From contig OY759724.1 of NCBI GenBank assembly GCA_963662715.1, positions 30,001-62,000 on the forward strand: 32,000 bases of DNA, in the 5' to 3' direction. The translations under genes and the position numbers were made by a program. The stretch is from Candidatus Omnitrophota bacterium (GTDB lineage: Bacteria > Omnitrophota > Gorgyraeia > Zapsychrales > JANLHA01). The stretch's first letter is position 1. The number at the start of each line of letters is the position of its first letter. This document shows positions 1 through 25,838 of this stretch, one piece after another. The notes beneath the pieces are model-generated. The model saw only the letters and a program-made list of their open reading frames with translations, did not search any database and had not been told where the DNA came from.

Positions 1-3000
1 CCTGCCAATTAACCCCCGTATCACTTAACACATTCAAATCCTGCCAGTTGATCCCTGCATCACTTAATACATCAATATCTGCCCAGTTGATCCCCGCATC
101 ACTTAATACATCTATGTCCAGCCAGTTGATCCCCGCATCACTCATCACATCGATGTCCAGCCAGTTTATCCCCGCGTCACTCATATCATTCACACTCACC
201 CAGTTAATCCCCATGTCACTCATCACATTCAAATCCTGCCAGTTAATCCCCGTATCCGATAGCACATCCAAATCTAACCAATTAATCCCCGTATCACTTA
301 AGACATCAATATCCAGCCAGTTGATTCCCGCATTCGTCATATCACTCATACTCACCCAGTTCATCCCCATATCACTCATCACATCTATGTCCAGCCAGTT
401 GATCCCCGCGTCACTCATATCATTCACACTCACCCAGTTAATCCCCATGTCACTCATCACATTCAAATCCTGCCAGTTGATCCCCGTATCCGAGAGCACA
501 TCCATATCCTGCCAGTTGATCCCCGCATCGCTCAGGATATCCAAGTCCAGCCAGTTGATCCCCGCGTTCGTCATATCACTCATACTCACCCAGTTCATCC
601 CGATATCACTCATCACATCGATATCCAGCCAGTTGATCCCCGCGTCACTCATATCATTCACACTCACCCAGTTAATCCCCATGTCACTCATCACATTTAT
701 ATCCTGCCAGTTGATCCCCGTATCCGAGAGCACATCTAAATCCTGCCAGTTGATCCCCGCATCACTCAGGATATCCAAATCCAGCCAATTGATCCCCGCA
801 TTCGTCATATCACTCATACTCACCCAGTTCATCCCCGCATCACTCATCACATCGATATCCTGCCAGTTGATCCCCGCATCACTTAAATCATTCATGCTCA
901 CCCAGTTAATACCCATGTCACTCATAACATTTATGTCCTGCCAGTTGATCCCCGTATCCGATAGCACATCTAAATCCTGCCAGTTGATCCCCGCATCACT
1001 CAGGATATCCAAGTCCAGCCAGTTAATTCCCGCGTTCGTCATATCACTCATACTCACCCAGTTCATCCCCGTATCACTCATCACATCGATATCCAGCCAG
1101 TTGATCCCCGCGTCACTTAAATCATTCACACTCACCCAATTGATCCCCATATCACTCATCACATTCAAATCCTGCCAGTTGATCCCCGTATCCGAGAGCA
1201 CATCCAGATCCTGCCAGTTGATCCCCGCATCGCTCATCACATCGATGTCCAGCCAGTTGATCCCCGCGTCACTTAAATCATTCACACTCACCCAATTGAT
1301 CCCTATATCACTCATCACATTTATGTCCTGCCAATTAACCCCCGCATCACTTAACACATCAATATCCGACCAGTTGATCCCCGCATCTGATAGGACATCC
1401 AAATCCGACCAATTGATCCCTGTATCTGAAATAACATCAATGTCCGACCAGTTGATCCCCGCGTCCGAAAGAACATCGATATCCAGCCAGTTGATCCCCG
1501 CGTTCGTCATATCACTCATACTCACCCAGTTCATCCCCATATCACTCATCACATCGATATCCACCCAGTTGATCCCCGCGTCACTTAAATCATTCACACT
1601 CACCCAATTGATCCCCATATCACTCATCACATTTATGTCCTGCCAGTTGATCCCTGTATCACTCAATACATCCATATCCTGCCAGTTAATCCCCGCATCA
1701 CTCATCACATCGATATCCAGCCAGTTGATCCCCGCATCACTTAAATCATTCACACTCACCCAGTTAATCCCCATGTCACTCATAACATTTATGTCCTGCC
1801 AGTTGATTCCTGTATCTGATAGAACATCCAAATCCTGCCAGTTGATCCCTGCATCGCTCATCACATCCAAATCCAGCCAGTTGATCCCCGTATCTGATAG
1901 AACATCCAAATCCTGCCAGTTTATCCCCGCATCACTCATCACATCGATGTCCAGCCAGTTAATCCCCGCGTCACTTAAATCATTCACACTCACCCAATTG
2001 ATCCCCATATCACTCATCACATTTATGTCCTGCCAGTTGATCCCTGTATCACTCAATACATCCAAATCCCGCCAATTAATCCCCGCATCACTCAGAGCAT
2101 TAATATCCTGCCAGTTGATCCCTGTATCACTCAATACATCGATGTCCAGCCAATTGATTCCTGTGTCACTTAACACATCGATATCCAGCCAGTTGATCCC
2201 CGCGTTCGTCATATCACTCATACTCACCCAGTTCATCCCCATATCACTCAGCACATCAATATCCTGCCAGTTGATCCCCGCGTCACTCAAATCATTCACA
2301 CTCACCCAATTGATCCCCGCGTCACTCATCACATTTATATCTGACCAGTTGACCCCTGTATCGCTCAACACATCCAGATCCAGCCAATTAATCCCCGTGT
2401 CACTCATCACATCTATATCCAGCCAGTTGATCCCCGCATCGCTTAAATCATTCACACTCACCCAGTTCACCCCCGCACTGCTCATCACATCGATATCCAG
2501 CCAATTAATCCCCGTGTCACTCATCACATCTATATCCAGCCAGTTGATCCCCGCATCACTTAACACATCGATGTCCTGCCAGTTGATTCCCGCGTCTGAG
2601 ATAACATCCAGGTCCAGCCAGTTAATCCCCGCATCACTCATCACATCGATATCCAGCCAGTTAATCCCCGCGTCACTTAAATCATTCACACTCACCCAGT
2701 TCACCCCGGCACTACTCATCACATTTATGTCCTGCCAGTTGATCCCCGTATCGCTCAACACATCCAGGTCCAGCCAATTGATCCCCGCGTCACTCAGCAC
2801 ATTAATATCCTGCCAGTTAATTCCCGCATCACTCAGCACATTAATATCCTGCCAATTGATCCCCGCATCACTTAACACATCGATATCCAGCCAGTTGATC
2901 CCTGCGTCACTCAAATCATTCACACTCACCCAATTAATCCCCATATCACTCATCACATCAATATCCACCCAATTAATCCCTGTATCTGAAAGAACATCCA

Positions 3001-6000
3001 GGTCCAGCCAGTTGATCCCCGCATCACTTAACACATCGATGTCCTGCCAGTTGATTCCCGCGTCTGAGATAACATCCAGATCCAGCCAATTAATTCCCGC
3101 ATCACTCATCACATCGATATCCTGCCAGTTGATCCCCGCGTCACTCAAATCATTCACACTCACCCAATTTACCCCGGCATTGCTCATCACATCAATATCC
3201 TGCCAGTTGATCCCCGCGTCACTCAATACATCCAAATCCACCCAATTGATCCCCGCATCACTCAGAACATTAATATCTGACCAGTTGATCCCCGTATCTG
3301 AGATAACATCCAGATCCAGCCAATTAATTCCCGCATCACTTAACACATCGATATCCAGCCAGTTGATCCCCGCGTCACTTAAATCATTCACACTCACCCA
3401 GTTGATCCCCATATCACTCATCACATTTATGTCCTGCCAGTTGATCCCCGTATCGCTCAACACATCCAAATCCACCCAGTTGATCCCCGCATCACTTAAG
3501 ACATCCAAATCCTGCCAGTTAATCCCCGTATCACTTAACACATCGATGTCCTGCCAGTTCACTCCGGCGTCACTCATCACATCAATATCCAGCCAATTGA
3601 TCCCCGCGTCACTTAAATCATTCACACTCACCCAGTTTACCCCGGCACTACTCATCACATTTATGTCCTGCCAGTTGATCCCCGTATCGGATAGAACATC
3701 TAAATCCTGCCAATTAATCCCCGCGTCACTCATCACGTCAACATCCTGCCAGTTGATCCCCGCATCACTCAGATCATTCACACTCACCCAGTTGATCCCC
3801 ATATCACTCATCACATCAATGTCCAGCCAGTTGATCCCCGCGTCACTCAAATCATTCACACTCACCCAATTTACCCCGGCACTGCTCATCACATCGATGT
3901 CCTGCCAGTTGATCCCCGTATCTGACAGAACATCTAAATCCTGCCAGTTAATCCCCGCGTCACTCAACACATCAATGTCCAGCCAGTTAATCCCCGCATC
4001 ACTCAAATCATTCACGCTCACCCAATTAATTCCCATATCACTCAACACATCAATATCCAGCCAGTTGATCCCCGCATCACTTAAAATATTTAAATCCCTC
4101 CAATTGATTCCTGCGTCAGAGAAAACGTCCAAATCCTGCCAGTTAATCCCTACATCTGAAAGGACATCCAAATCCAACCAGTTGATCCCCGCATCACTTA
4201 ATACATCAATGTCCAGCCAGTTGATTCCCGCGTCACTCAAATCATTCACACTCACCCAGTTGATCCCCATATCACTCATCACATTTATATCCTGCCAGTT
4301 GATCCCCACATTCGTCATATCACTCATGCTCACCCAGTTCATCCCCATATCACTCATCACATTCAAATCCTGCCAGTTGATTCCCGTATCACTTAATACA
4401 TCCAAGTCCTGCCAGTTAATTCCCGCATCACTTAACACATCGATGTCCAGCCAGTTGATCCCCGCATTCGTCATATCACTCATACTCACCCAGTTCATCC
4501 CCATATCACTCATCACATCAATGTCCTGCCAGTTGATCCCCGCATCACTCAAGTCATTCATACTCACCCAGTTGATCCCTATATCACTCATCACATTTAT
4601 ATCTGACCAGTTGATCCCCGTGTCACTTAACACATCCATATCCGACCAGTTGATCCCCGCATCACTTAAGACATCTATGTCCAACCAGTTAATCCCCGCA
4701 TCCGTCATATCACCTATGTTTATCCAATTCACCCCCGCATCACTCATCACATCGATATCCTGCCAGTTGATCCCCGCGGCACTCAAATCATTCACACTCA
4801 CCCAGTTGATCCCCGCATCTGATAGAACATTCAAATCCGACCAATTAATTCCTGTGTCTGAGAGAACATCAATGTCCAGCCAGTTGATCCCCGCGTCACT
4901 TAAGACATCGATGTCCAACCAGTTCATCCCCGCATTCGTCATATCACTCATACTCACCCAGTTCATCCTTGCATCACTCATCACATCAATGTCCAGCCAG
5001 TTGATCCCCGCGTCACTTAAATCATTCACACTCACCCAATTGATCCCCGCGTCACTCATTTCATTAATGTCCGACCAATTGACTCCCGTATCACTTAACA
5101 CATCCCAATCCAGCCAGTTGATCCCCGCGTCACTCATCACATCGATATCCAGCCAGTTGATCCCCGCATCGCTTAAATCATTCACACTCACCCAATTGAT
5201 CCCCATATCACTCATCACATCAATATCCTGCCAATTGATCCCTGTGTCTGAAAGCACATCCAGGTCCAGCCAGTTGATCCCCGCCTCACTTAACACATCA
5301 ATGTCCAGCCAGTTGATCCCCGCCTCACTTAACACATCCAAATCCAGCCAGTTGATCCCCGCGTCACTCATCACATCTATATCCAGCCAGTTGATCCCCG
5401 CGTCACTCAAATCATTCACACTCACCCAGTTAATCCCCATGTCACTCATAACATTTATGTCCTGCCAGTTGATCCCTGTATCACTCAACACATCCAAATC
5501 CCGCCAATTAATCCCCGCATCACTCAGAGCATTAATATCCTGCCAGTTGATCCCTGTATCACTCAATACATCGATGTCCAGCCAATTGATTCCTGTGTCA
5601 CTTAACACATCGATATCCAGCCAGTTGATCCCCGCGTTCGTCATATCACTCATACTCACCCAGTTCATCCCCATATCACTCAGCACATCAATATCCTGCC
5701 AGTTGATCCCCGCGTCACTCAAATCATTCACACTCACCCAATTGATCCCCGCGTCACTCATCACATTTATATCTGACCAGTTGACCCCCGTATCGCTCAA
5801 CACATCCAGATCCAGCCAATTAATCCCCGTGTCACTCATCACATCTATATCCAGCCAGTTGATCCCCGCATCGCTTAAATCATTCACACTCACCCAATTA
5901 ATCCCCATATCACTCATCACATTTATATCTGACCAGTTGATCCCCGTGTCTGAAAGTACATCCAGGTCCACCCAGTTGATCCCCGCATCACTTAACACAT

Positions 6001-9000
6001 CGATGTCCAGCCAGTTGATCCCCGTATCTGAGATAACATCCAGGTCCAGCCAGTTAATCCTTGCATCACTCATCACATCGATATCCTGCCAGTTAATCCC
6101 CGCGTCACTTAAATCATTCACACTCACCCAGTTTACCCCGGCACTACTCATCACATCGATGTCCTGCCAGTTGATCCCCGTATCGCTCAACACATCCAGG
6201 TCCAGCCAATTGATCCCCGCGTCACTCAGCACATTAATATCCTGCCAGTTAATTCCCGCATCACTCAGCACATTAATATCCTGCCAATTGATCCCCGCAT
6301 CACTTAACACATCGATATCCAGCCAGTTGATCCCTGCGTCACTCAAATCATTCACACTCACCCAGTTCACCCCCGCACTGCTCATCACATCGATATCCAC
6401 CCAATTAATCCCTGTATCTGAAAGAACATCCAGGTCCAGCCAGTTGATCCCCACATCACTTAACACATCGATGTCCTGCCAGTTGATTCCCGCGTCTGAG
6501 ATAACATCCAGATCCAGCCAATTAATTCCCGCATCACTCATCACATCGATATCCTGCCAGTTGATCCCCGCGTCACTCAAATCATTCACACTCACCCAAT
6601 TTACCCCGGCATTGCTCATCACATCAATATCCTGCCAGTTGATCCCCGCGTCACTCAATACATCCAAATCCACCCAATTGATCCCCGCATCACTCAGAAC
6701 ATTAATATCTGACCAGTTGATCCCCGTATCTGAGATAACATCCAGATCCAGCCAATTAATTCCCGCATCACTTAACACATCGATATCCAGCCAGTTGATC
6801 CCCGCGTCACTTAAATCATTCACACTCACCCAGTTGATCCCCATATCACTCATCACATTTATGTCCTGCCAGTTGATCCCCGTATCGCTCAACACATCCA
6901 AATCCACCCAGTTGATCCCCGCATCACTTAAGACATCCAAATCCTGCCAGTTAATCCCCGTATCACTTAACACATCGATGTCCTGCCAGTTCACTCCGGC
7001 GTCACTCATCACATCAATATCCAGCCAATTGATCCCCGCGTCACTTAAATCATTCACACTCACCCAGTTTACCCCGGCACTACTCATCACATTTATGTCC
7101 TGCCAGTTGATCCCCGTATCGGATAGAACATCTAAATCCTGCCAATTAATCCCCGCGTCACTCATCACGTCAACATCCTGCCAGTTGATCCCCGCATCAC
7201 TCAGATCATTCACACTCACCCAGTTGATCCCCATATCACTCATCACATCAATGTCCAGCCAGTTGATCCCCGCGTCACTCAAATCATTCACACTCACCCA
7301 ATTTACCCCGGCACTGCTCATCACATCGATGTCCTGCCAGTTGATCCCCGTATCTGACAGAACATCTAAATCCTGCCAGTTAATCCCCGCGTCACTCAAC
7401 ACATCAATGTCCAGCCAGTTAATCCCCGCATCACTCAAATCATTCACGCTCACCCAATTAATTCCCATATCACTCAACACATCAATATCCAGCCAGTTGA
7501 TCCCCGCATCACTTAAAATATTTAAATCCCTCCAATTGATTCCTGCGTCAGAGAAAACGTCCAAATCCTGCCAGTTAATCCCTACATCTGAAAGGACATC
7601 CAAATCCAACCAGTTGATCCCCGCATCACTTAATACATCAATGTCCAGCCAGTTGATTCCCGCGTCACTCAAATCATTCACACTCACCCAGTTGATCCCC
7701 ATATCACTCATCACATTTATATCCTGCCAGTTGATCCCCACATTCGTCATATCACTCATGCTCACCCAGTTCATCCCCATATCACTCATCACATTCAAAT
7801 CCTGCCAGTTGATTCCCGTATCACTTAATACATCCAAGTCCTGCCAGTTAATTCCCGCATCACTTAACACATCGATGTCCAGCCAGTTGATCCCCGCATT
7901 CGTCATATCACTCATACTCACCCAGTTCATCCCCATATCACTCATCACATCAATGTCCTGCCAGTTGATCCCCGCATCACTCAAGTCATTCATACTCACC
8001 CAGTTGATCCCTATATCACTCATCACATTTATATCTGACCAGTTGATCCCCGTGTCACTTAACACATCCATATCCGACCAGTTGATCCCCGCATCACTTA
8101 AGACATCTATGTCCAACCAGTTAATCCCCGCATCCGTCATATCACCTATGTTTATCCAATTCACCCCCGCATCACTCATCACATCGATATCCTGCCAGTT
8201 GATCCCCGCGGCACTCAAATCATTCACACTCACCCAGTTGATCCCCGCATCTGATAGAACATTCAAATCCGACCAATTAATTCCTGTGTCTGAGAGAACA
8301 TCAATGTCCAGCCAGTTGATCCCCGCGTCACTTAAGACATCGATGTCCAACCAGTTCATCCCCGCATTCGTCATATCACTCATACTCACCCAGTTCATCC
8401 TTGCATCACTCATCACATCAATGTCCAGCCAGTTGATCCCCGCGTCACTTAAATCATTCACACTCACCCAATTGATCCCCGCGTCACTCATTTCATTAAT
8501 GTCCGACCAATTGACTCCCGTATCACTTAACACATCCCAATCCAGCCAGTTGATCCCCGCGTCACTCATCACATCGATATCCAGCCAGTTGATCCCCGCA
8601 TCGCTTAAATCATTCACACTCACCCAATTGATCCCCATATCACTCATCACATCAATATCCTGCCAATTGATCCCTGTGTCTGAAAGCACATCCAGGTCCA
8701 GCCAGTTGATCCCCGCCTCACTTAACACATCAATGTCCAGCCAGTTGATCCCCGCCTCACTTAACACATCCAAATCCAGCCAGTTGATCCCCGCGTCACT
8801 CATCACATCTATATCCAGCCAGTTGATCCCCGCGTCACTCAAATCATTCACACTCACCCAGTTGATCCCCATATCACTCATCACATCAATATCCTGCCAG
8901 TTGATCCCTGTATCACTCAACACATCCAAATCCCGCCAATTAATCCCCGCATCACTCAGAGCATTAATATCCTGCCAGTTGATCCCTGTATCACTCAATA

Positions 9001-12000
9001 CATCGATGTCCAGCCAGTTGATTCCCGCATCACTTAACACATCAATATCCAGCCAGTTGATCCCTGCGTTCGTCATATCACTCATACTCACCCAGTTCAT
9101 CCCCATGTCACTCATCACATCAATATCCTGCCAGTTGATCCCCGCGTCACTCAAATCATTCACACTCACCCAATTGATCCCCATGTCACTCATCACATCA
9201 ATATCCTGCCAGTTGATCCCCGTGTCACTTAACACATCAATATCCTGCCAGTTCACTCCGGCATCACTTAAAACACCTATATCCAGCCAGTTGATCCCCG
9301 CGTCACTCAAATCATTCACACTCACCCAGTTGATCCCCATATCACTCATCACATCGATATCCTGCCAATTGATCCCTGTATCTGAGAGCACATCCAAATC
9401 CACCCAATTAATTCCCGCATCTGAAAGCACATCCAAATCTGACCAGTTGATCCCTGTATCTGAGAGCACATCCAAATCCACCCAGTTGATCCCCGCATCA
9501 CTCAACACATCAATATCCAGCCAGTTGATCCCCGCGTCACTCAAATCATTCACACTCACCCAGTTAATCCCGGCACTGCTCATCACATCGATGTCCTGCC
9601 AGTTGATCCCCGTATCGCTCAACACATCCAGGTCCAGCCAATTGATCCCCGCGTCACTCAGCACATTAATATCCTGCCAGTTAATTCCCGCATCACTCAG
9701 CACATTAATATCCTGCCAGTTGATCCCCGCATCACTTAACACATCTAAATCCTGCCAGTTGATCCCCGCATCACTTAAATCATTCACGCTCACCCAGTTC
9801 ACTCCGGCACTGCTCATCACATCGATATCCAGCCAATTGATCCCTGTATCTGAAAGAACATTCAGGTCCAGCCAGTTGATCCCCGCATCACTTAACACAT
9901 CTAAATCCTGCCAGTTGATCCCCGCATCACTTAACACATCCCAATCCAGCCAGTTGATCCCCGCGTCACTCATCACATCAATATCCAGCCAGTTGATCCC
10001 CGCGTCACTTAAATCATTCACACTCACCCAGTTTACCCCGGCACTACTCATCACATCAATATCCAACCAGTTGATCCCTGTATCACTCAATACATCCAAA
10101 TCCACCCAGTTGATCCCCGCATCGCTCAGGACATTGATATCCTGCCAATTAATTCCCGTATCGCTCAACACATCCAAATCCAACCAATTGATCCCCGCAT
10201 CACTTAACACATCGATATCCAGCCAGTTGATCCCCGCATCACTTAAATCATTCACACTCACCCAGTTGATCCCCATATCACTCATCACATTTATGTCCTG
10301 CCAGTTGATCCCCGTATCGCTCAACACATCCAAATCCAGCCAGTTAATCCCCGAGGAAGACAGTTCAGCTATATTCATCCAATTAATCCCATTGATCGTC
10401 ATCTTTCCCATGTCTGTCCAGTTAATTCCTGCTTCAGACATAACTGTTATGTTATCCCAATTAATTCCTTTTAAAGACATTTCTCCAATATTCAACCAGT
10501 TAATATCTGAATCTGACATTTCTCCAATCCTATCCCAATTAATGCCACTCATTGTCATTTCGTCAAGATTTAACCAATTAACACCTGAAATCGACATGTC
10601 ACTGATGCTATCCCAATTAATTCCTTTATTAGCCATATCAACCAATCCATCCCAGTTCACTCCAGCATCGCTCATCACGTCAATATCCAGCCAATTGATC
10701 CCCGCATCAGTTAACACATCCAAATCCAACCAATTGATCCCCGCATCACTTAAGACATCGATATCCTCCCAGTTAATACCCTTATCCGCTAATACATCAA
10801 TATCTTTCCAATTTATCCCTGTATCACTCAGGATATCAATATCGGCCCAATTGATCCCCGCATCACTCAAATCATTCACACTCACCCAATTGATCCCCAC
10901 ATCACTCAGCACATCGATATCCAGCCAGTTGATCCCCGTATCACTCAAGTCATTTATACTTACCCAGTTCACCCCCGCACTGCTCATCACATCAATATCC
11001 GTCCAATTGATGCCCGTATCTGAAAGAATATCCAAATCCCTCCAATTAATTCCCGCATCACTTAAAACATCCAAATCCCGCCAGTTGATCCCTGCATCAC
11101 TTAACACATCCAAGTCCCGCCAGTTGATCCCCGCATCACTCAACACATCAATATCCAGCCAATTGATCCCCGCGTCACTTAAATCATTCACGCTCACCCA
11201 GTTCATCCCCACATCACTTAATACATCAATGTCCCGCCAGTTGATTCCCGTATCGCTTAGAACATTAATATCTTCCCAATTGATTCCCGCATCACTTAAG
11301 ACATCAATGTCTAACCAGTTAATGCCCGCATCACTCAGATCGTTGATTCCAGTCCAATTAATCCCTCTATCACTCAGCACATCAATATCCAGCCAATTGA
11401 TCCCCGCGTCACTCAAATCATTCACACTCACCCAGTTCACGCCCGCACTGCTCATCACATCGATATCCAGCCAGTTAATCCCCGTATCCGAAAAAACGTC
11501 CAAGTCCTGCCAGTTGATCCCTGCATCACTTAAGACATCGATATCCTGCCAGTTGATCCCTGCTTTTGACATAAGATCTATACCAGTCCAATTTACCCCT
11601 CTATCACTCATCACATCAATATCCGCCCAATTGATCCCTGCCGCACTCATACTATAGACGCTTAACCAGTTAATCCCTTGCTCGCTCATAATGTTAATAT
11701 CCTGCCAGTTAACTCCTGATAAACTTAAATCGTATATTCCTAACCAATTGATATTCCGAGTACTCATGACACCAACATCAAGCCAGTTGATGCCGGCCGT
11801 ACTTAATTCACCAATTTCAAGCCAATTGACAGCACGGTCACTCATCACATCCAAATCCAACCAATTGATCCCCGCATCACTTAAAACATTGATATCCATC
11901 CAATTAACCCCGGCATCACTTAAGACATCAAGATCGGCCCAATTAATTCCCATATCACTCATCACATCTATATCCAGCCAATTAATGCCGGCATCACTCA

Positions 12001-15000
12001 GATCATTTATGCTTACCCAATTAATCCCTCTGGCACTCATCACCTCAATATCAACCCAATTAATTCCCGTATCGCTTAAAACGTCCAGATCTTTCCAATT
12101 AATGCCGGTATCGCTTAGGATGTCAATATCGAGCCAGTTAATTCCCGCCCCACTCAAATCACTTAAATTGGTCCAATTGATCCCCCGGTCAGTTAAAACA
12201 TCGATATCTTTCCAATTAACCCCGGCATCACTCAGCACATCGATGTCCAGCCAGTTGATCCCTGCGTCACTCATATCATTAATGCTCACCCAGTTCATTC
12301 CTTGTTCGCTCAGGACCCTGACATCATCCCAATTAATCCCTGTATCACTCATCACATCTATATCCAGCCAATTAATGCCGGCATCAGACATATTCGCAAT
12401 GTTATCCCAATTAACTCCTGAAGAGGCAATCTCATCCCATCCTGTCCAATTTACATTCGCATCACTTAGGATATCAATATCCTGCCAGTTGATCCCCGCA
12501 TCACTCAAGATATCAAGATCGGCCCAGTTAATTCCGGCATCACTTAAAATATCAACATCCTGCCAGTTAATTCCGGTATCGCTCAGCACATCAATGTCCA
12601 GCCAGTTAATTCCGGATTCAGACAGGACCTGAATATCATCCCAGTTGACATTCGCGTCTGTCATATCACGAATGTTATCCCAGTTAACTCCCTGGATATC
12701 TATGGCCATATTTTCCAAATTCTCCCAATTAATTCCCGCGGAAGACAAATCCCCAAAATTATCCCAGTTAATACCGGCGGTCGTCATTTCCTCCAAACTG
12801 CTCCAGTTAACTCCCTGGACATCTATGGCCATTTCCTCTAACTCCGTCCAGTTGATCCCGGACGAAGACATTTCAGAAATATTCATCCAGTTAACATTGG
12901 AATTGGCCATATCCGCTAAACCCACCCAGTTAACTGCGGATTTACTGATTTCTTCAAGGGCAATCCAGTTCACCCCGGCTTCGGCCATATCAGCAATACT
13001 GTCCCAGTTGATTCCGGAGGTGGACATTTCTTCTATGTTTTCCCAATTCACCCCTTGAATATCAATAGCCATATTTTCCAGTTCCACCCAATTAATCCCC
13101 GCATCAGTCATCTCGGCCAAATTCATCCAGTTCACCCCGGCATCTGACAAGACATCAATAGCCGACCAATTGACACCCGCATCACTCAATACATCGATAT
13201 CCAGCCAGTTGATCCCCGCGTCGGACAAATCATTAATACTTATCCAGTTGATCCCCGCATCACTCAATACAGCGATATCATCCCAATTCACAGCTGAAGT
13301 CGCCAGATCATCCAAACCCGCCCAATTCATTCCGGCTGTACTTAATTCCGCGAGATCCGCCCAGTTCACACCGGCTGTTGACAGTTCATTAAATTCCGTC
13401 CAATTAATCCCGATATCGCTCAACACATCCAAATCCCGCCAGTTGATCCCCGCGTCACTCAGCGCATTGATATCCAGCCAGTTGATCCCCGCATCAGAAA
13501 GAACATCGATATCTTTCCAGTTAATGCCGGTATCAGAAAGGACGTCAATATCTTTCCAGTTAATGCCGGCCTCTGATAAAGCATTAATGTTTGTCCAATT
13601 AATGCCGACAGTACTTAACTCGGCGATATCATCCCAATTCACACCTGTCGTAGCGAGATCATCTAATCCGGTCCAGTTTACTCCGGCATGACTTAAAGCG
13701 GCAATGTCCTCCCAGTTGACACCAGCTGTAGATAATTCGTTAAATCCAACCCAGTTGATCCCAGTGTCACTCAACACATCCAGATCCAGCCAGTTGATCC
13801 CCGCATCAGTTAAGAGATCCAAATCCCGCCAGTTAATCCCGGCATCACTCAAGGCATCTAAATCCGCCCAATTAATGCCCGACATAGACATCTCCGTCAG
13901 ATTCGCCCAATTCATCCCCGATAAGGATAAAACACCGAAATCATACCAGTTGACTTCCGCTTTACTCATGATCTCCAGATCATCCCAGTTAAGGCCAACT
14001 TCCGACATGACAGTAAGATCTTCCCAATTCACTCCAGCGGTTGTCAGTTCCGCCAGATTATCCCAATTGATTGTTTCACTCCAATCCACGCCTGCTCCGC
14101 TCATATACGCTATATCAAACCAATTGACTCCGGCGTCACTCATAAATTCCATATCCTCCCAATTGATACCGGCCTCCGTCATGACCGTAATATCTTCCCA
14201 GTTGATCTGAGCCGCGGCCATTGAGTAGACATTTGTCCAATTGACCTGACTCGTCGTCATGACTTCCATATCATCCCAATTAACATCATCCAGGGCATCA
14301 GCAGACGATCTTATTGAAGAGAGGTCCGACATCAGAACCCCTATGTCATCCCAGTTGATCGTGTCTGTCTTGGATTTAATTTCCGTAATGTCCGTCCAGT
14401 TAATCGTATCGGTTTTGGCTTTGATATCCGTCACATTGGTCCAGTTGATGGACGATGTGTCGACTAAGATGTCGTTCACATCCTGCAAAATAGCAAACTG
14501 CGTCAAGTCATAGGTGTCATAGCTTGTATATGTCTGACTGCGGGCGTCGTAATAAATCAAGACCTCGGCAAAATAAGAAGAATCAAAATCAGGACTGTCC
14601 GCTGACCAGGCATAACTGAAAACATTGCTGGAAGGTGTTCCAAAATCTCCGGTTGAAATGGCTTTCTCAAGGGTCCCGTCCGGCTCGTAAATGTTGACAG
14701 CACAGGTATCGCTGGCCCCCAAAGTCACCCGGCCTTCGGACCCTTCCAGCCAGCACTTCACATACAGGTCCCCGTTGGAGTCGTCATAAACAACCGTGGA
14801 CATCGGAGTCGTACAGGGTTCAACGGTGAAAGCGGCGGTGGTATCGGAGATATAACCGCTTGCTGTCGCCTGCAAGGTATATCCCACTCCGGGGACAGGG
14901 ATTTGCAAATCGGTAAAAGTCGCCACACCGGAACCGTTTGTCGTCACGGTAGTCGTCCCGATCAGTGAAGAGCTTCCCGGATTTGACAAAATAGCAATAG

Positions 15001-18000
15001 TGACATCCACTCCCGAAGCAGAGTCGCTCGTGCTGACAATCGGCTGGTTTTCCAATAACTGACAAGAGAAAGAGGTCGTCGGCTCCTGGGTAAAGGTTAA
15101 GGTTTTATCCTCCATGGTGAAGGTTTGCACCGCGCTCCAGTCTCCCGGGACATCGGCCTCGCCAGAACCGCCGTCATGCGCCGTATCCCAGAAACGGATC
15201 CGCCAGTAATACGTTGAGCCGTCTATGGACAAAGCTGTTCCGGCATAAGAGACATCGTTCATTCGTGTGTTTTCGGTGACATCACTTCCCGTATCGGTTT
15301 TCCCGGTGTCCCACATGCGTGTGCCGTCAAAGGTATTGGCCGTGTCAACCTCAATCTCATAATAGGAACAGTCATCGGTGTCCGGATCATCACAGATGGC
15401 GGAGAACTCCGGGGTGGTGTCCGTCACGTCGGTCACGGGAGTCACAGAGCCCTCACAGTAAGGGGTGAGCGGAGCAGAAGCCACCTCATTGGTGACTTCA
15501 TCCGCCCCGATATCCGGGGATGTTCCGTCCCGGGCGTCCGCATCGATATCATCCGTAACAGGCAGATTGGCGTCACTGTCCAGATCTGTTCCGTTGGTCC
15601 CCCATAAGGTCAAACTATCGTGACGAAGGTGCAAATCTGTCGAGGTTGCTCCGGCTTCATAAAAATAGTCCGTATAATCCGTTTCATTGGTCTGGCTGCC
15701 GGTTCCGGAAGCCGTGGCATCAGATGACACATTATAAGACTGGGTGATTGTGCCGTTGAAACAAGCCTCGCTTCCATTCGTACTGTTTACTTCGCCGCAG
15801 GAAGAGTTTCTTACCGTCATCGTTCCGCTGACATTGTCGATCCCACGGGCATAACCCGTACTGCCGGTGTTGTTGATCGCATGAAGCGTGAGGTTGTGCA
15901 GATAATAAGTATCACCGCCAGATGCGGCTAACAGCCCGACAATGTTCGAGCTTGCATTCGTTGAGAGGTTTGTCATATCGTAAATTATCGTATTGCGAAC
16001 CTTCAGGTTCCCGTCATTTATAACAATCCCTCTCACATTGCTGGCGTCGGTGTCATCTGTCGTAGAGTTATCCAGATCATGAATGATGGCTTTACTGATC
16101 TGAATATCGGAACTGCTGTCGCTGATGGCGGCATTCAGCGAAATCCCATCAAGGTTTTCCGCATTCGTAATCTGTGATCCGTCTATCTCTATGCCTTCGA
16201 TACGGACATAATCATCGGATATATCAATGACCGAATAAGGATCGCCCGGGCTGGAATTCGAAGGCTGAATCACGACTCCCGTCCCTTCTTCACCGGTATG
16301 CCGCTGTGAGCTGCCGACCTCCGAGGATAAAGACGGGGCGAACATCCGGATATAATGAGTGCTGTCCGTCGTATAGCCGTCAATCGTCAACTGCGCGCCA
16401 GAGCCATCGGCCCCGTCAAACACGCCGTCAGAATACAAAACCCAGTTCAGCTGGACGTCCGCACCGGCAGAGGTCAGATCCGCGCTGTTGAGGTAACTCC
16501 CCCCGGATGAATTCGATTCCGCGGAGGAAAGCGTGTTAAACGCGCGGCTAATAGACGTGACGGCCGTGCTTGACAGATCTGACGGGACGGCGCCCGTGGC
16601 TGTTGTCACGGTATAAACCGTCGAAGACTGCCGGCTCTGAATATAATAAGTATTTCCCCCGGCGACGAGTTCGTCTCCGGCCCCGACATCATCCGCCTGA
16701 GCGGCAGTAAATTCGGCTGTATGATTGGTGATCGTGACGTTGGGAGAACCGCTTGTCAGATCACCCGTATCCGTTCCGACAGAATAATAGACTTCCACGA
16801 CCGGTTCGATAGAAAGATACGGACGATCAGAGGCGGAAGACGCGTCTTGGCTATGTATGCTGACATACTCGGCGCCCGATGGAGAGGTTCCGCTAACGTC
16901 CCTGTCGGACAAGAGGGCATAGAGGGTACTGCCGCTGGTGGAAACATAGGAGGTGTCAAGGCTTTGGGAAGAATAATAAACACCTGTCGACATCCCGGAC
17001 GTCCCGCGCCAGTCGGCGTCATACGTGCTGGCCAACGCCCCGTCAAAATTTGATTCTTGATATGAAGCGATCGGACTCGACCAACTGTATTGATGTATCC
17101 GGGCTGTAAAATCCGTTGTGGAGGCATCTGTGTTCGCTTTAAGATACAAATGAGCCCTGGCCGGAGCGGCGGATAAAGACGATGTGTCAAAAGACAAATA
17201 AGCCCGGTGGACATCATATACAAGGCCGGCGGTAAAATTCTGCCCGACTAAAAAAGTGGCTCCGGAATCATCGCTCGAGGACGATGAGTTACGGGCCTGC
17301 GTATAAGAGGGGTCCTGTCCCGAAATATATCCGTCCGCCGAATTCCCGTAAAATGTATCGGGATCAATCTGAACAGGATAAGCGGCATTTTTAAACCAGT
17401 CTAAGGGGAACTGAACCGAGACACAGAACGCATGCTCCTCCGAAGACGGCTGAGTTGATGTGTCTTTTCCCGTATCCGGAAGAGGGCTGAGGATAAATTG
17501 CCCGTAAACCTTTTCCCCGTTGGCATCTATGGCAACAGGCTTTTTCCACCACCATAAAACTTTTTTCTCCTCATCCACAAAATCCACATGCGTCGTTACG
17601 GAAGGTTTTCTGTCATTCCAAATTTTGCCATCAAAGAGCAGCTCCAAATCCGTCGCAAAATGAAGCGTAAGGGAAAGAGCTGAACCGGCAGAAGGCTCAG
17701 CAGAACCGGACAAGGATAAAGAATCCAAAGATTCCACAGAGAGAATCTTGATGAAACGGACATCGCTGGGAGTATAACGGAAATTCAATCCCCGGCCGTA
17801 AGCCTCCGGCCATTCAATAAATCCGCCCCCGGAGACGATATCAAAGGGCTTATTGCTGACCTGCCCTGTAACGGGACGGGGCCTGGCCAGGATGTGTTGC
17901 GTTCTTTTTTCTGTATCATCTTCAGAAAAGTGAACAGAAAGAGGTCCCGGGACAGCTTCTAAATAATGGCCGTCTTTCTCCAGACGTAAAATTTTGTGTT

Positions 18001-18462: not shown

Positions 18463-18588
18463 GGAAAGACACCGGCTACCTGTCTCCTCAAACCGGAAAA
18501 GAACAAGCATCCCTGGCCATTCCAGCTTCTGAAAAATTTTTCTACGCCTTAATATAAGATAAAATTAAATTATTGTAACGTTATCACC

Positions 18589-20511
18589 TCACTCACTCAT
18601 CTGATCAACGATCTCTTCTTTAGCGCCCGTGTATTTCCACCAATTCTCGCGTTCTTCTCTCACTTCTTTGTCTAAAGACGAATCAATGCTGCCCATGAGC
18701 TCCATCTGAGCGGCAATGATTTTTTCTTTAACTAAATGCAGATCCTCCGCTTCCGGATTTAACCATAAATACTGCTGATAATGAGTCAACGCTGTTTTAA
18801 AATCTCCCAAATATTCACTGGAAACAAATGCGAGATTAAAGTGGGCGTTCGCATCATGAGGGACAAGCTGAACGGCCTTCCGGTACTCGTCCCGGGCTCT
18901 GCCATAATGTCCCTGATGAAAAAATATATTCCCCATGTTGTAATGCACTTTCCCCTCATCTTCCCGCATGGTTTCATGTTCCGAGGACATTTCGTCCAGC
19001 ATGGAAATAACTTTCTGACTCCTCACGCGGTCGTGAAATGCCGCGTCGGCCAAAACCTGCTCTTCCCCGGCAAATGATATTTCCGGCGCCGCCTCTGAAC
19101 TGACAACAGCCCCTCCCTGCGCCAGTAAACCGCCTGTCAGATCATGCTTTAATTGCTCGGCCTGAGATTGCAGCCGGACGATCTGCTGCTCCCACACATT
19201 GAGTTTGTTCGAAGCAACCCCATCAGATGAGCGGGACAAATTCCCAAGCAGCTCTTCTTTCGCCTCGCTCACCATACTGGCAAGCTGCCTCGCTTCCGCC
19301 AAAGCAATCCCTTTGTATTTTTCCGTCAGCTTCTGCTCAATGACATTGACTTGCGCAAGAATATCATTGATGCGTTTTTTTGCTAATTGTTTCTGCCGCG
19401 TTTTAAAATCTGAAATTTCCTGCTCTTTCTTAGCCAATTGATTCTCCAGTTGCTGAATCTCTTCCTGCAAGGCATTTTTCCGTTCGGCACTCATTTCCGA
19501 AGGCAAAGAAGAATATTCCTGGGACTTATCGGCTAAGGTCTGCTGTACTGTCTCAACCTGAGCGACCATCTCCTGCGATTTCGATTCCTGTTCTTCCTTG
19601 AATTTCTCAAACTCCTGACTTCGCTGAGCAAGTTGTTTCTCCAGGCCTTTCAGCTCCTCCGTTAAACTCATAGCCTTGCTCTCGGCAGCTTCCTTGGCGG
19701 TCTGCAACTCGGATATTTGCGCCTGGTATTCCCGAGTTTTATTTTTGAGCTCCTCCTCCAGTTGCGACACCTGCCGAGAAAGCTTTTCAAGATCTTCTTC
19801 TGCCTGCGTCCGCTGCTCTTCGCTCAGCTGTTTCATCTCGTCTTCCCGTTCCATCATCTGGCGACGCAACTCCACAATGGTTTTTTGAAGATGATTTAAC
19901 TCACGCGCTGATATCTCAACCTGGACGGTCTCCCCCTCTTCCGGGATAATTCCGGGACTCGGCTCGGCCAGCATAAATTCTAACTTCTGATTCTTTTCAA
20001 CGAGCTCTTTTTCTATTTCAGCAATTCTTTCCTGCAACTTCAGCACATTTTTTTGTGAATTCTCCAGCATGCCTTTATAGGAATCCCGCTCTTTATCAAG
20101 GACACGCAAACGGTTCACCTCGATTGTTCGCTGGCCCCGCAAATTTTTCAACTGTTGATCCAATCCCTTCTTTTGAGACTCTAATTCCTGATTCTTTTCA
20201 ATGGCCTCTTTTAAAATGCGGTTCAGTTGAATAATTTTTTCGGGGCTTAAGGATTCACCCACATCGACCTGCACGGCTGTTATCTCTTTGGCCCCTGCCC
20301 CGGAACCGGGAATCTCCTTTTCCGTTTGTCTCCGGCCGAATTTCGGCTTTTCTACGACAATTTGATCCAGGCCAATTTCCGTTTCAATGATCGTGACATC
20401 CCCCTCAACCGTCACCGGTCGATCTTGCGCAGATACCACGGCAGGACACAGTGACCACAACCATAAACAGGATAAAATAACCGTTAAATTTTTATTTCCT
20501 CTATGTATCAT
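18589..20511 (-). CDS. Secreted coiled-coil protein with a C-terminal TPR domain (MshN/PilF-like role possible)
   Basis: 640-aa ORF. The N-terminus MIHRGNKNLTVILSCLWLWSLCPAVVSAQ looks like a signal peptide. A region of about 380 aa is E/K/Q/L-rich (for example LQERIAEIEKELVEKNQKLE and QLENQLAKKEQEISDFK). TPR-like helices lie at the C-terminus (YNMGNIFFHQGHYGRARDEYRKAVQLVPHDANAHFNLAF...ALTHYQQYLWLNP). The ATG is 7 nt after the secretin stop. Confidence 0.8.
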   Translation of the reverse strand: MIHRGNKNLTVILSCLWLWSLCPAVVSAQDRPVTVEGDVTIIETEIGLDQIVVEKPKFGRRQTEKEIPGSGAGAKEITAVQVDVGESLSPEKIIQLNRILKEAIEKNQELESQKKGLDQQLKNLRGQRTIEVNRLRVLDKERDSYKGMLENSQKNVLKLQERIAEIEKELVEKNQKLEFMLAEPSPGIIPEEGETVQVEISARELNHLQKTIVELRRQMMEREDEMKQLSEEQRTQAEEDLEKLSRQVSQLEEELKNKTREYQAQISELQTAKEAAESKAMSLTEELKGLEKQLAQRSQEFEKFKEEQESKSQEMVAQVETVQQTLADKSQEYSSLPSEMSAERKNALQEEIQQLENQLAKKEQEISDFKTRQKQLAKKRINDILAQVNVIEQKLTEKYKGIALAEARQLASMVSEAKEELLGNLSRSSDGVASNKLNVWEQQIVRLQSQAEQLKHDLTGGLLAQGGAVVSSEAAPEISFAGEEQVLADAAFHDRVRSQKVISMLDEMSSEHETMREDEGKVHYNMGNIFFHQGHYGRARDEYRKAVQLVPHDANAHFNLAFVSSEYLGDFKTALTHYQQYLWLNPEAEDLHLVKEKIIAAQMELMGSIDSSLDKEVREERENWWKYTGAKEEIVDQMSE

Positions 20512-22195: not shown

Positions 22196-22929
22196 AAACG
22201 GACGTTCATCCTTTCCCCCATGTAGGAAAAATCTACGCTGTCTGCGTAAATCTTTTCAACTTTGACCCCAAGGAACTCCTCTCCTGTTTTCAGGAAATGA
22301 GTGACCTCTGTCTGATGATCTTCTATCATGACAGTTACCGAATCCGGCGACTCAAGCCAAGAAATTCCGACCAGCTTAAACTGATTGAGTTTCTCGGCAA
22401 TCAGTTGATTAGGCAGGACTTCTTCCACGGCTTCATCCACGACTTCCACCTTTCTTTCAAAAGGCTGAAAAATATTCCGATAAGAGACAAGACTCATATA
22501 TTCCGTAACATCTTTGACAATATTTTCAAGACGGCCGGCCAGGCCTTTTTGTGAGGATGTCAAAGCAGGAATCTCTACTTGAATGGATCTTTGGGCAGAC
22601 TTCATGCCTTTGCTGAAATCAGACACAAAATAGGCGCCCACAAGCAAAAGGGCAAAAAACAAAACTTTGTTTAATTCCCTGACGCTTAATGTCTGCGGTA
22701 TTTGAGCCATTGTGGCGGGATTCCGGATCAGCTGAAACAATTGTCCGATCCCGGATGGTAAAGTGAGCGTGCCCATCCCCAAACTTTGAACCGAATCCAA
22801 GGTCTTCTGCGCATCCGCATTGACCGAGGCAGCAGAGGAAGAGGACGGCGCAGCAGCAGAAGCGGGTTCCTGAGCTTCTGTGGCCTCAATGAGTTTGAGA
22901 AGTTTTTGTTCTGCAGTTTCTTTGGCCAT
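22192..22929 (-). CDS. Bitopic inner-membrane protein with a GspC/PilP-like (HR-type) C-terminal domain
   Basis: 245 aa. The N-region is low complexity and A/S-rich. There is one TM segment (VLFFALLLVGAYFV). The C-terminus LVGISWLESPDSVTVMIEDHQTEVTHFLKTGEEFLGVKVEKIYADSVDFSYMGERMNVRL matches the 'L-x-G-I ... A-x-I ... y-x-x-G-d-x-l ... v-x-x-I ... V-x-l ... g' pattern of secretin-binding domains. The stop is translationally coupled to the secretin start. Confidence 0.5.
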   Translation of the reverse strand: MAKETAEQKLLKLIEATEAQEPASAAAPSSSSAASVNADAQKTLDSVQSLGMGTLTLPSGIGQLFQLIRNPATMAQIPQTLSVRELNKVLFFALLLVGAYFVSDFSKGMKSAQRSIQVEIPALTSSQKGLAGRLENIVKDVTEYMSLVSYRNIFQPFERKVEVVDEAVEEVLPNQLIAEKLNQFKLVGISWLESPDSVTVMIEDHQTEVTHFLKTGEEFLGVKVEKIYADSVDFSYMGERMNVRL

Positions 22930-25158: not shown

Positions 25159-25181
25159 ATTATTCGGGAGGTTATCTGTTT

Positions 25182-25838
25182 CTAATGTTTTTTTCCGACA
25201 GCAAAAAGCAGCATTCCAAATTGACGGCCCAAAAAAGAATCCGGAGACCAGAGGAAGGGCAACGTATTGATCCCCCCGGAGGAAATCACCCTCAGGCCAT
25301 TACGTTCGTAAAGATGCTGCAGGCCCTTCAACACAAACGGATCTTCTTTGATGCCGGGCATAAAAAAAGGACGAATCAGCTGCCATGGCGACCAACGATT
25401 CGGAACAACAGTGACCAGGAAGCCGTCATGACGCAACAGGGACATCAAATTGCGCACGATCATGTCCTGTTCTTGCAGATTAAAATGTTCAAAAAGACCG
25501 TCTGAAAAAATGAGATCAAAAGCGCCGTCTATGCCGCTGCGGAAACTGGATGACAACAAATCAGCCTTGACAACCCGGGCCCGACGGCCCGTGCTCTGAC
25601 GGGTCAAGTCAAGAGCCGACTGAGAATAATCCAGAGCCACGGTGCGCGCCCCCTGATCACAAAAATACTTTGAAAAAAATCCGCTACCGCAGCCCGCATC
25701 CAGGACATCCATCTCTTTCGACACATAAGGAGAGACTATTTGAATAATTCTCTTTTTGGACCAGGAGATGTTCGTGCCAGAAGGGATGTTATCCTTCCCC
25801 CAAAAATTATCCCAGTTTTTTGAAGAACACTTGGCCAT
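25182..25838 (-). CDS. Class I SAM-dependent methyltransferase
   Basis: 218 aa. Motif I is VLDAGCGSGFFSKYF. An acidic post-I residue follows (VALDYS), and the DLIFSDGLFEHF motif is present. Confidence 0.8.
   Translation of the reverse strand: MAKCSSKNWDNFWGKDNIPSGTNISWSKKRIIQIVSPYVSKEMDVLDAGCGSGFFSKYFCDQGARTVALDYSQSALDLTRQSTGRRARVVKADLLSSSFRSGIDGAFDLIFSDGLFEHFNLQEQDMIVRNLMSLLRHDGFLVTVVPNRWSPWQLIRPFFMPGIKEDPFVLKGLQHLYERNGLRVISSGGINTLPFLWSPDSFLGRQFGMLLFAVGKKH

Follow-up and report, generated by a model that had tools for sequence, protein, structure and literature searches.

Omnitrophota are ultra-small, mostly uncultured bacteria that are thought to live on other cells, and their giant genes are known to be puzzling, since most lack annotated domains and they vary from genome to genome. 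Loci coding for an F-type ATPase and a type-4a pilus (T4aP), termed 'symbiotic' and likened to the gliding ATPases of Mycoplasma, were described in every Omnitrophota class by Seymour et al. (PMC10066038), whose criterion was a distance of at most 10 kb between T4aP genes and a type-2/3 F-type ATPase operon; West-Roberts et al. (bioRxiv 10.1101/2023.11.21.568195) reported loci resembling type II secretion systems (T2SS) that adjoin Omnitrophota giant genes. Giant repetitive surface proteins beside secretion or pilus genes are already known from this phylum. Here we analyse 32,000 nt of Candidatus Omnitrophota DNA (GCA_963662715.1, contig OY759724.1, forward positions 30,001-62,000; referred to throughout as the window), whose minus strand carries a giant gene dominated by a 13-residue Asn-Trp repeat. 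The repeat unit is probably one short helix and a turn, and we put at about even the chance that the gene codes for a giant exported protein with a long helical-repeat stalk or tether that is passed through a co-encoded secretin.

With the giant open reading frames (ORFs) described from Omnitrophota the gene shares the phylum, a very long, repeat-rich, exported product with few or no annotated domains, assemblies that break within the gene, adjacent genes of secretin, GspE and GspF type, and a proposed role in attachment to other cells. In the family described here the repeat gene has a secretin module upstream of it, in the window as in about 30 related loci, genes for MshE and GspF lie downstream on two further contigs (L036 and L037) and a GspG gene on L037, and the relatives are labelled Omnitrophota or Omnitrophica by their sources. 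The published size limits are >20 kb (Seymour et al., PMC10066038) or ≥10,000 aa (2026 preprint, 10.64898/2026.06.07.730766), against which 18.4 kb and 6149 codons are visible here, in an ORF that is still open at the window edge. The classes described so far are 'Archaeovorin', dockerin-type, TSP3, NHL, WD, HEAT and multi-enzyme proteins, many with numerous transmembrane (TM) helices, and the system of West-Roberts et al. has more than 10 subunits, with rcpC and a rotamase gene upstream and pilZ and solute-binding genes downstream, whereas the repeat gene sits between a secretin-TPR module and an F-type ATPase operon. The 13-residue Asn-Trp unit is absent from the texts of all three reports (10.1101/2023.11.21.568195, PMC10066038 and 10.64898/2026.06.07.730766), and a text search for the motif returned nothing relevant; at most, the 2026 preprint may count the family within its 137 'Pfam-dark' long proteins.

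The repeat array and its coding nature

The giant gene occupies a single minus-strand frame that is open from 18448 to window position 2 (6149 codons), has its Met at 18412 and leaves the window at the left edge. A non-repeat head of about 1330 aa precedes the array, which starts at about aa 1337 (window position ~14440) and continues to at least aa 6149, where the window edge cuts it (2..14440, minus strand); on the strand as given, the repeat is seen as CCAGTT, the reverse complement of AACTGG (Asn-Trp). The array has 373 W-W intervals, of which 358 measure exactly 13 aa, the others being 15-mers, one 25-mer, one 6-mer and 3+10 pairs that keep the phase; from aa 2028 to the end, N-W is found at 317/317 in-phase positions. 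An earlier note on this DNA had reported about 370 tandem acidic Trp units of 13 residues, and their number and place held, as did the composition and charge that it gave. The consensus in the window, with positions numbered p1 to p13, is [LQV]-D(72%)-[ILVM]-[D/N]-V(65%)-[L(60%)/M(37%)]-S(91%)-D(79%)-[A/T/M]-G(96%)-[I(81%)/V/M]-N-W, L being commoner than M at p6. The array contains 17.7% D, 10.8% N, 7.7% W and 0.8% K+R, with no P, C or H; D, N, S or G make up 46% of its residues, and the net charge is -871, or -2.35 per unit.

A 39-nt period is visible in the raw DNA, to which Tandem Repeats Finder adds super-periods of 117, 234 and 390 nt. Because the entropy by codon position in the tract is 0.81/0.51/1.15 and the conserved Ser is kept through both of its codon families (AGY 264, TCN 60), the tract is under selection as protein and is coding, not a DNA satellite. 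The plus strand holds a long ORF at 48..11657 (a 3884-codon open frame, 3869-aa ORF), which we rejected as a stop-free shadow of the repeat: its translation is rich in S, L, I, T and P, it lacks a real N-terminus and its codon phase is wrong. Automatic gene callers are prone to annotate this shadow by mistake.

Internal sequence comparison revealed a super-repeat of about three tandem copies of 3432 bp (88 units) each at approximately 1..10300, within which 2410 bp are perfectly duplicated in direct orientation (3022-5431 = 6454-8863) between flanks of 80-97% identity. Either unequal crossing-over or gene conversion produced the perfect 2.4-kb duplication very recently, or it is an artefact of assembly; the identity gradient around its core looks biological. 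The unit count of about 370 is provisional and assembly-dependent because of this duplication, and the window does not give the total number of units because the gene is cut at its edge.

Structure of the unit

Searches of the array against Pfam, NCBIfam and PHROG (two 650-aa blocks for Pfam and NCBIfam) gave summed partial scores only, with no significant stretch; the scores of Ntox33, BNR_6, MAGI_u1, DUF7409, Dmc1 and glutaredoxin were dismissed as summation artefacts of low complexity. PDB sequence searches with the head, the array, a head profile and the C-terminal domain returned nothing below E ~0.04, and Foldseek found no PDB match to the array model. With the literature equally free of a match and no significant hit to the profile of an established family, the view that the unit belongs to no known repeat family stands.

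AlphaFold2 was run on 20 units with an in-register alignment of 31 sequences, giving a predicted local distance difference test score (pLDDT) of 47 and a predicted TM-score (pTM) of 0.17, and on the complete family member P0029 with the family alignment, for which pLDDT was ~90 in the Ig-like modules, 55-83 in long C-terminal helices and 44-61 in the array. Both runs placed, at low confidence, one helix of 8-9 residues in each unit (W13 to p8), the helices being split by [A/T]-G-[I/V]-N. Because these models were weak, an independent test of secondary structure was made by mean-field direct-coupling analysis (effective N 910) of 3318 distinct three-unit segments taken from the window, 31 loci and protein matches and covering >30 species.

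The strongest couplings were p4-p8 (i+4) and p2-p5, p5-p8 and p1-p4 (i+3), each recurring in all three units. Over the six variable positions, mean coupling by separation was 2.12 (3), 1.58 (4), 1.09 (2), 0.75 (1) and 0.33 (6), and since p1-p2 (0.15) and p2-p8 (0.20) are uncoupled the pattern is not a blanket lineage effect. Same-position couplings between units were weak (0.1-1.2). Residues i and i+3 lie on the same face of a helix and on opposite faces of a strand. At p2 and p5 a carboxylate is exchanged, with S-D seen 155 times against 15 expected, N-E 107 against 13 and D-D 9 against 199; units without Asp at p2 have Asp or Glu at p5. For the segment W13-p9 the hydrophobic moment has its maximum at 110-120 degrees and little strength at 160-180 degrees; the moment analysis speaks against beta and is ambiguous in other respects.

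Helix-capping rules place Asn at the N-cap, Asp at N3, Gly at C' and hydrophobic residues at N'/N4 and C3/C''. The segment I11-N12-W13-x-D2-I3 ... L6 ... G10-I11 follows these rules, and its conserved residues fit an N-cap at Asn12, N3 at Asp2, a staple of Ile11 and Ile3, C' at Gly10 and a Schellman pair of Leu6 and Ile11. Taken together, the couplings, the p2/p5 exchange, the capping fit, the AlphaFold2 helices and the moment of W13-p9 are the reason why we favour a unit of one short helix plus a turn, which we regard as likely from sequence statistics and models, supported but not proven.

When units were anchored independently of W (2827 units, 32 species), Asn12 was conserved in 97.2% and Trp13 in 98.8%, with Phe and Tyr together below 0.5%, from which it follows that Trp does something that a generic aromatic residue cannot; it may hydrogen-bond the obligatory carboxylate of the neighbouring unit, or bind a ligand. 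Hydrophobic residues occupy five positions of the unit in ~100% of units, and p1 is the most variable position, mostly polar family-wide (S, A, T, D). In the window, and also in 29 arrays from other species, units an even number of steps apart are more alike than those an odd number apart, an alternation that hints that two units (26 residues) may form the structural repeat.

Family distribution and evolution of the array

With the 1324-aa head as query, two true relatives were found among 5.8 billion proteins: P0001, which is 66% identical to the window head and carries the same array, and P0002, which has head modules in common with the window and stops before any array could appear. A search with a repeat block returned 24 fragments, several of them named Candidatus Omnitrophota by NCBI, and a search of 1.84 billion representative proteins with the array profile returned 622 at E ≤ 1e-3 and 33 at E ≤ 1e-30. 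Weaker profile matches (e.g. P0093, P0109 and P0171) were rejected as LRR-like proteins without the N-W motif. A scan of one genome per species gave 32 genuine loci, nearly all in metagenome-assembled genomes (MAGs) labelled Omnitrophota or Omnitrophica; the family is rare globally yet widespread within one phylum. Some array-bearing MAGs stand in TPA records under the labels 'uncultured Planctomycetales/Planctomycetia', with Omnitrophota as their closest relatives.

At all 32 loci the ORF is still within the array where the available DNA stops, and in 28 of them the contig itself ends there. Four loci show 276-285 units of an unfinished array, and the ORFs of relatives reach at least 4095 aa, again unfinished, while complete members measure 868-2809 aa. 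Short-read assemblies of Omnitrophota break systematically at the array, from which many records of a 'partial hypothetical protein' stem; recognising the array explains these entries and helps the curation of Omnitrophota genomes (28/32 reference assemblies being broken there).

The first ~100 units are collinear between the window and its closest orthologs, with a unit identity of 0.68 on the diagonal against a background of 0.455, so this proximal array is no drifting satellite but a structure that has been conserved. A 6-residue irregularity (W-x-E-T-I-N-W-D-N-L-A) is kept in most of the family, for which reason the first array units are taken as orthologous between species, and a search with the pattern WxETINWD recovered the family. 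In the window the irregularity lies at 13970..14071 (minus strand; '...YMSGAGVDW-SETINW-DNLAELTTAGVNW', the second element being the 6-residue unit). From collinearity and this conserved irregularity together it follows that the proximal array is old and orthologous and that the distal part grows by block duplication.

Units of the form [ST]-x-x-G-[IV]-N-W also occur about 8-10 at a time in the middle of other proteins (P0075 and P0084; also P0079, P0082, P0086, P0089 and P0091), surface proteins of 800-1350 aa that are unrelated in all other respects and have a GLUG-like beta-helix at the N-terminus. Such short arrays in unrelated proteins suggest that ~10 units may make a self-contained module. 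Looser, variably spaced G-I-N-W arrays are seen in further signal-peptide proteins (P0024-P0028; e.g. ...LxGINWxDYxxxxxINWxxITExxLxGINW...), which are perhaps remotely related to the unit or else convergent.

Architecture of the giant protein

Family members have a common architecture of signal peptide, Ig-like module, second beta-sandwich, two or three 15-residue IKAKTDTINW units and the 13-residue array, which comprises from tens to at least 370 units. A lineage-specific head may stand before the Ig-like modules and measures ~1100 aa in the window lineage. The window protein, like P0001, begins at the Met encoded at 18410-18412, with a putative Sec-type signal peptide or N-terminal anchor read from the sequence (MRQPFLKIDNKNYVLLIILGLYLLSVPRVFSYVA; 18311..18412, minus strand, as are all features of the head); short family members have canonical signal peptides of the A-x-A type. 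The N-terminal head proper (aa 47-551; 16796..18310) has P0001 and P0002 as its only relatives in protein databases and is also encoded in loci L002 and L003. It is followed by a lineage-specific module (aa 552-986; 15491..16795) that ends in ...D.DG..R....DIGADE and is homologous to a duplicated module of P0003 (BLASTP E 9e-20 and 2e-16), which overlaps a Pfam match to right-handed beta-helices (PF13229, P0003 161-331). Pfam had no direct beta-helix match on the window module, and its assignment is by homology transfer alone.

An Ig_Rha78A_N-like (FN3/Ig-like) module follows at aa 999-1112 (15113..15454; PF25788, E 7.2e-07, 29.9 bits against a cut-off of 27.4), a domain that is stronger and present in several copies in P0002 and P0071. 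Family alignments define two further beta-sandwich (Ig-like) modules at aa 1112-1330 (14459..15115), which form the conserved core of the family and carry the signature ...LSNPG..GTTTVT..G.A.F..L...G..YTL.A...; the equivalent region of P0029 was modelled at pLDDT ~90 and matched only tandem Ig domains of the PDB in Foldseek. The transition to the array (14276..14458) consists of two 15-residue T-D-I-x-x-I-K-[AS]-K-T-D-T-I-N-W units and one 25-residue unit. Its IK[AS]KTDTINW motif is conserved across the family, which the pattern D[IV]..IK[AS]KT also recovered.

Fragments that start inside an array show the C-terminal end to be a helical, non-repeat region of 110-260 residues with E-T-[LV]-F-G motifs and a conserved [VI][VI]K.W[FY]E; the C-terminal ends of the family have neither a membrane anchor nor a sorting signal. 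The complete members include P0029 (868 aa, ~33 units), P0074 (900 aa) and P0071 (2809 aa, with a 1595-aa head and ~73 units). A motif [ET]-T-[LVM]-[FY]-G-x-[ILV] recurs in a helical segment that some members (P0005, P0008, P0011 and P0032) have inserted after the IKAKTDTINW units and before the array, and is repeated several times in the C-terminal domain of P0009, P0010, P0012 and P0015; 'A-Y-M-[ST]-G-x-G-V-N-W' is likewise present near both array ends in these two sets of proteins.

Gene neighbourhood

All neighbouring genes in the window lie on the minus strand. Upstream of the giant gene, beyond a weak promoter-like site (GTTACA-17-TATATT, 18551..18579; 2 sites against 0.7 expected), with no terminator-like site found in between by the scan of the window, lies a gene for a secreted coiled-coil and TPR protein of 640 aa (18589..20511) with a PilW/Tgl/MshN-like TPR end by Pfam and NCBIfam. 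It is preceded by genes for a secretin of the PilQ/GspD/MshL family (558 aa, 20519..22195; Pfam Secretin E 1.6e-47; 246 bits against TIGR02515 PilQ, which is under the subfamily cut-off), a weakly GspC-like protein (245 aa, 22192..22929; NF041515 GspC_delta E 1.3e-4) and an ExeA/MshM-like AAA ATPase (311 aa, 22966..23901; AAA_22 E 1.5e-21; TIGR03015 181 bits, below cut-off). By tblastn ~30/32 loci have the ATPase, GspC-like, secretin and TPR genes, in unchanged order, immediately before the repeat gene, the secretin being conserved in ~30; the GspC-like gene is syntenic in most loci, and its counterpart in L037 matches T2SSC at E 0.0025.

Farther upstream, a conserved block (24175..28815) codes for a GT2 protein (24175-25158), a methyltransferase (25182-25838), a DUF2304 protein (25889-26263), a second GT2 protein (26260-26985), a 121-aa OSCP-like protein (27113-27478) that matches only the C-terminal half of ATP synthase delta/OSCP (E 7e-9), and an S41 peptidase with a PDZ domain (27541-28815). 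This S41/OSCP-like/GT2/DUF2304/methyltransferase/GT2 block often precedes the four secretion genes in related loci. A link by glycosylation between the GT2 and DUF2304 genes and the invariant Trp (or Asn) was considered and rejected, p1 being S or T in only ~36% of units family-wide and rarely in the window. The OSCP-like gene is also found upstream of the secretin module in L001 (1297-1674), L025, L028 and L032; in the window it is far from other ATPase genes, and elsewhere a full F-type ATPase operon stands downstream of the repeat gene.

Between the genes for the S41 peptidase and LplA lies one for a 141-aa protein with a signal peptide and two EF-hand motifs (28934-29359; Pfam EF-hand_1, _5, _6 and _7), whose product looks like a secreted or periplasmic Ca2+-binding protein. 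In the window (29532-31684) and in the distantly related L037 (1-1527) the locus is bordered by gcvPB, for glycine dehydrogenase subunit 2, and by a gene for an LplA-like lipoate ligase, which shows that macro-synteny is conserved well beyond the secretion genes. L037 also has two FGE-sulfatase-domain proteins (524 and 544 aa) encoded between its TPR and repeat genes (6796-9991; the P0029 locus), and a gap of ~3.4 kb at the same place in L004, L007, L013 and others may hold this pair; the window has no FGE-sulfatase genes between its TPR and repeat genes. Rfam and tRNA scans of the window gave no matches.

The downstream side of the repeat gene is known from three independent contigs, L036, L037 and L038. 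Directly 3' of it, with a start codon that abuts or overlaps its stop codon, is a gene for a membrane protein of 435-461 aa and of unassigned family (L036 1418-2737, L037 12610-13917, L038 1249-2634), in which an N-terminal stretch is hydrophobic, part of the sequence is duplicated and a TM helix lies at the C-terminus; the copies of L036 and L037 are 27% identical (E 1e-52), and the protein is a candidate membrane partner or anchor. The F-type ATPase operon comes next on all three contigs, its genes in L036 and L037 coding for beta, epsilon, c, delta, gamma and alpha, and is followed in both by genes for an MshE/GspE ATPase and GspF and in L037 also for a GspG-like pseudopilin.

Proposed model and alternative readings

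The data above show the repeat and its coding nature, and the distribution, architecture and synteny of the family; the rod shape, the export route and the tether function go beyond them. In the model that we put forward, each unit would form a short amphipathic alpha-helix that runs from W13 to p8 and ends in a tight turn, [A/T]-G-[I/V]-N. Asn12 would cap the following helix and Gly10 terminate the preceding one, and each unit would need one carboxylate, placed either at p2 or at p5. Two units may combine into a double-helix repeat of 26 residues, and units stacked end to end would give a very long, thin helical-repeat rod. We infer that Sec would export the giant protein to the periplasm, from where it would pass through the co-encoded secretin, and that the resulting surface stalk or tether would carry the Ig-like and beta-helix-like head to the surface of a host, prey or substrate. 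Alpha-solenoids stack at roughly 9-10 Angstrom per layer. If the array is alpha-solenoid-like, 373 units would by our estimate span ~0.17 µm with two units per layer or ~0.35 µm with one, a length comparable to the Omnitrophota cell size of ~0.2 µm (PMC10066038).

Several observations weigh against this model. The confidence of AlphaFold2 in the array was low in both runs (pLDDT 47 and 44-61; pTM 0.17 and 0.32), and the program can default to helices on amphipathic sequence of low information. The p4-p8 coupling is partly a lineage effect, with D-D enriched in acidic lineages; couplings across units are weak and do not establish tertiary packing; and the hydrophobic moment of the whole array peaks at 138 degrees, which is neither alpha nor beta. 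The length of the array in this assembly is possibly inflated by the perfect 2.4-kb duplication, and the window shows neither the 3' end of the giant gene nor its downstream genes. Export through the secretin and the tether role have conserved gene order as their sole basis, and the neighbouring secretin may serve a pilus or pseudopilus alone.

The earlier note had pictured a long, possibly Ca2+-stabilised solenoid or fibre with a Trp ladder; on this view each unit or pair of units would be a rung of a beta-solenoid or beta-roll, with the Trp ladder inside it or along its edge. Hydrophobic residues at p11, p13, (p1), p3 and p5 do follow the alternation of a strand that has one hydrophobic face, S-D-x-G might form a turn, the units of the window are very acidic, Pfam BNR_6 (the Asp-box S-x-D-x-G-x-T-W) gathers partial scores on the array, and the small secreted EF-hand protein encoded nearby hints at a role of Ca2+ in the envelope. 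However, the polar p1 of the family breaks the alternation, the exchange of carboxylates between p2 and p5 does not suit a strand, the couplings peak at i+3/i+4 and not at i+2, with neither a ladder of strand pairs nor strong same-position stacking, both AlphaFold2 runs gave helices, and BNR_6 has no significant stretch on a motif that is one residue shorter than the Asp-box. Net charge ranges from -2.6 to +0.3 per unit across lineages that have the same unit, the window being near the acidic extreme and L022, L033 and P0030 having approximately neutral units with Lys or Arg at p8; the carboxylates conserved family-wide number one per unit, at p2 or p5. Since strong acidity is lineage-specific, Ca2+-dependent folding is not a family trait, although cation binding may matter in the lineage of the window, where the EF-hand protein is encoded. 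We consider the beta rung improbable, and the length estimated at 4.8 Angstrom per unit falls with it; a long, regular extracellular fibre is still reasonable, without the beta rung and the dependence on Ca2+. There is similarly little to commend an array with no stable fold, that is, an extended or disordered polyanion (a surface brush, matrix or cation-binding coat) whose periodicity stems only from its origin by duplication. It would suit the low pLDDT, the share of D, N, S or G, the recent block duplication with its perfect 2.4-kb copy and the lack of a PDB structural match to the array-only model, but it sits badly with five positions that are hydrophobic in ~100% of units and with N12 at 97% and W13 at 99%, with residue-specific covariation, with a unit order kept between orthologs, with a Ser kept through both codon families and with the absence of polyanionic character in many lineages. 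The earlier note had named a confident prediction of disorder or the lack of a regular fold as what would count against a solenoid, and the latter came out half so, with an array pLDDT of only 44-61.

It is unlikely, but deserves more weight, that the repeat folds only as an oligomer, namely as a fibre of two or three chains whose assembly starts at the helical C-terminal domain, in the way of phage fibres with fibritin-like or foldon-like ends; the helix-turn seen in the monomer would then be only part of the picture, or mistaken in its details. Strictly regular though the sequence is, the monomer models have low confidence, cross-unit couplings within the chain are weak, the C-terminal domain is modelled as long helices (pLDDT 55-83), that of P0009 has a weak match to PHROG 1056 'fibritin neck whisker' (E 7e-5), and the invariant Trp and Asn could make a zipper between chains. 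Yet the PHROG 1056 match perhaps reflects coiled-coil composition only, and the arrays of ~10 units in unrelated GLUG-type surface proteins, which have no such C-terminal domain, suggest folding without it. Very improbable, finally, is an array that, in itself or in its length, is an artefact of assembly, or a polyprotein precursor cut into 13-residue Trp peptides, for instance by the S41 peptidase. A perfect 2410-bp duplication is hard to assemble correctly, 28/32 reference contigs break within the array and the S41 peptidase is conserved in the upstream block; on the other side, the array is found independently in 32 genomes and many metagenome fragments, in the same phase and with both ends, and identity falls off gradually (80-97%) around the perfect core, in keeping with a true duplication or with gene conversion. 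No cleavage dipeptide is conserved between units, p1 being the most variable position, the units are flanked by folded N-terminal and C-terminal domains, and S41 peptidases are common housekeeping enzymes. A helical-repeat stalk of helix-turn units remains the reading that we prefer.

Comparison with known systems

The inferred short amphipathic helices, tight turns and elongated superhelical stacking resemble those of alpha-solenoids (TPR, HEAT, Sel1 and PPR), in which the weak 26-residue alternation would equal a two-helix repeat. Known alpha-solenoid repeats have 30-47 residues and helices of 12-20, whereas the Asn-Trp unit has 13 residues per helix-turn, and no alpha-solenoid model of Pfam or NCBIfam and no PDB sequence matched the array. 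As for superhelical stacking, a helix per unit is supported, at an array pLDDT of 44-61 and with no Foldseek match to the array model. We know of no alpha-solenoid with an invariant Asn-Trp pair in hundreds of copies per chain.

S-D-A-G-I-N-W resembles the BNR/Asp-box S-x-D-x-G-x-T-W, and BNR_6 accumulates 25.8-52.3 bits on the array, as a sum only and with no passing stretch, S-D-x-G-x-N-W being the shorter motif. Asp-boxes are beta-hairpins ~40-70 residues apart in beta-propellers, whereas the unit has a contiguous 13-residue period and helical covariation. RTX, beta-roll and beta-solenoid adhesins (LapA, SiiE, MpIBP) are likewise giant, acidic, repetitive surface extenders that bear binding modules. 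They have Ig-like extenders of ~100 residues, nonapeptide Ca2+ sites (GGxGxD) and type I secretion with a C-terminal signal, whereas the repeat protein has a 13-residue unit, an N-terminal Sec-type signal, a secretin locus and an acidity that is not conserved. Its period is 13 and not that of the nonapeptide, no RTX model of Pfam or NCBIfam matched the two 650-aa blocks, and, as regards type I secretion, the C-termini of the family are helical and its neighbours are secretin, GspC-like, MshE and GspF genes, not ABC/MFP/TolC. Dockerin and EF-hand models of Pfam had no match on the array, in which, by inspection, the register of conserved residues does not fit the helix-flanked 12-residue loop D-x-[DN]-x-[DN]-G-x-I-x-x-x-[DE]. 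Generic beta-solenoids appear equally distant, judging from the i+3/i+4 couplings, the weak in-register stacking and the helices modelled by AlphaFold2.

Co-location on L036, L037 and L038 makes the repeat-gene locus a candidate match to the published 'symbiotic' F-ATPase/T4aP locus. On these contigs the repeat gene is followed by an F-ATPase operon of atypical gene order, with a secretin upstream and with MshE/PilB-like, GspF/PilC-like (L036 and L037) and pilin-like (L037) genes after it; a repeat gene inside the locus is not mentioned in PMC10066038. The family gives the proposed symbiosis locus a concrete candidate surface component. Mycoplasma mobile glides by means of an F1-like ATPase and the giant surface 'leg' proteins Gli349 and Gli521, with which the proposed likeness is one of logic; no sequence similarity to Gli proteins is claimed. 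An unlikely but more far-reaching reading is that the Asn-Trp unit is a new fold class, the shortest known helix-turn solenoid, stabilised by a ladder of Asn, Trp and carboxylate, and the giant protein the missing surface filament ('leg' or tether) of the T4aP/F-ATPase symbiosis apparatus, which would then be a contact or motility machine of the same logic as Mycoplasma gliding.

New with respect to the searched libraries and literature are the 13-residue Asn-Trp helix-turn unit, its defined termini and its fixed position between secretin-TPR genes and an F-ATPase operon. For protein science the family offers a strictly periodic, Pfam-dark, AlphaFold-resistant repeat with an invariant Asn-Trp in several thousand natural unit variants. 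Unlike the other giants of Omnitrophota, it is phylum-wide, both of its ends are known, and it keeps a fixed position in a locus of pilus, secretin and F-ATPase genes.

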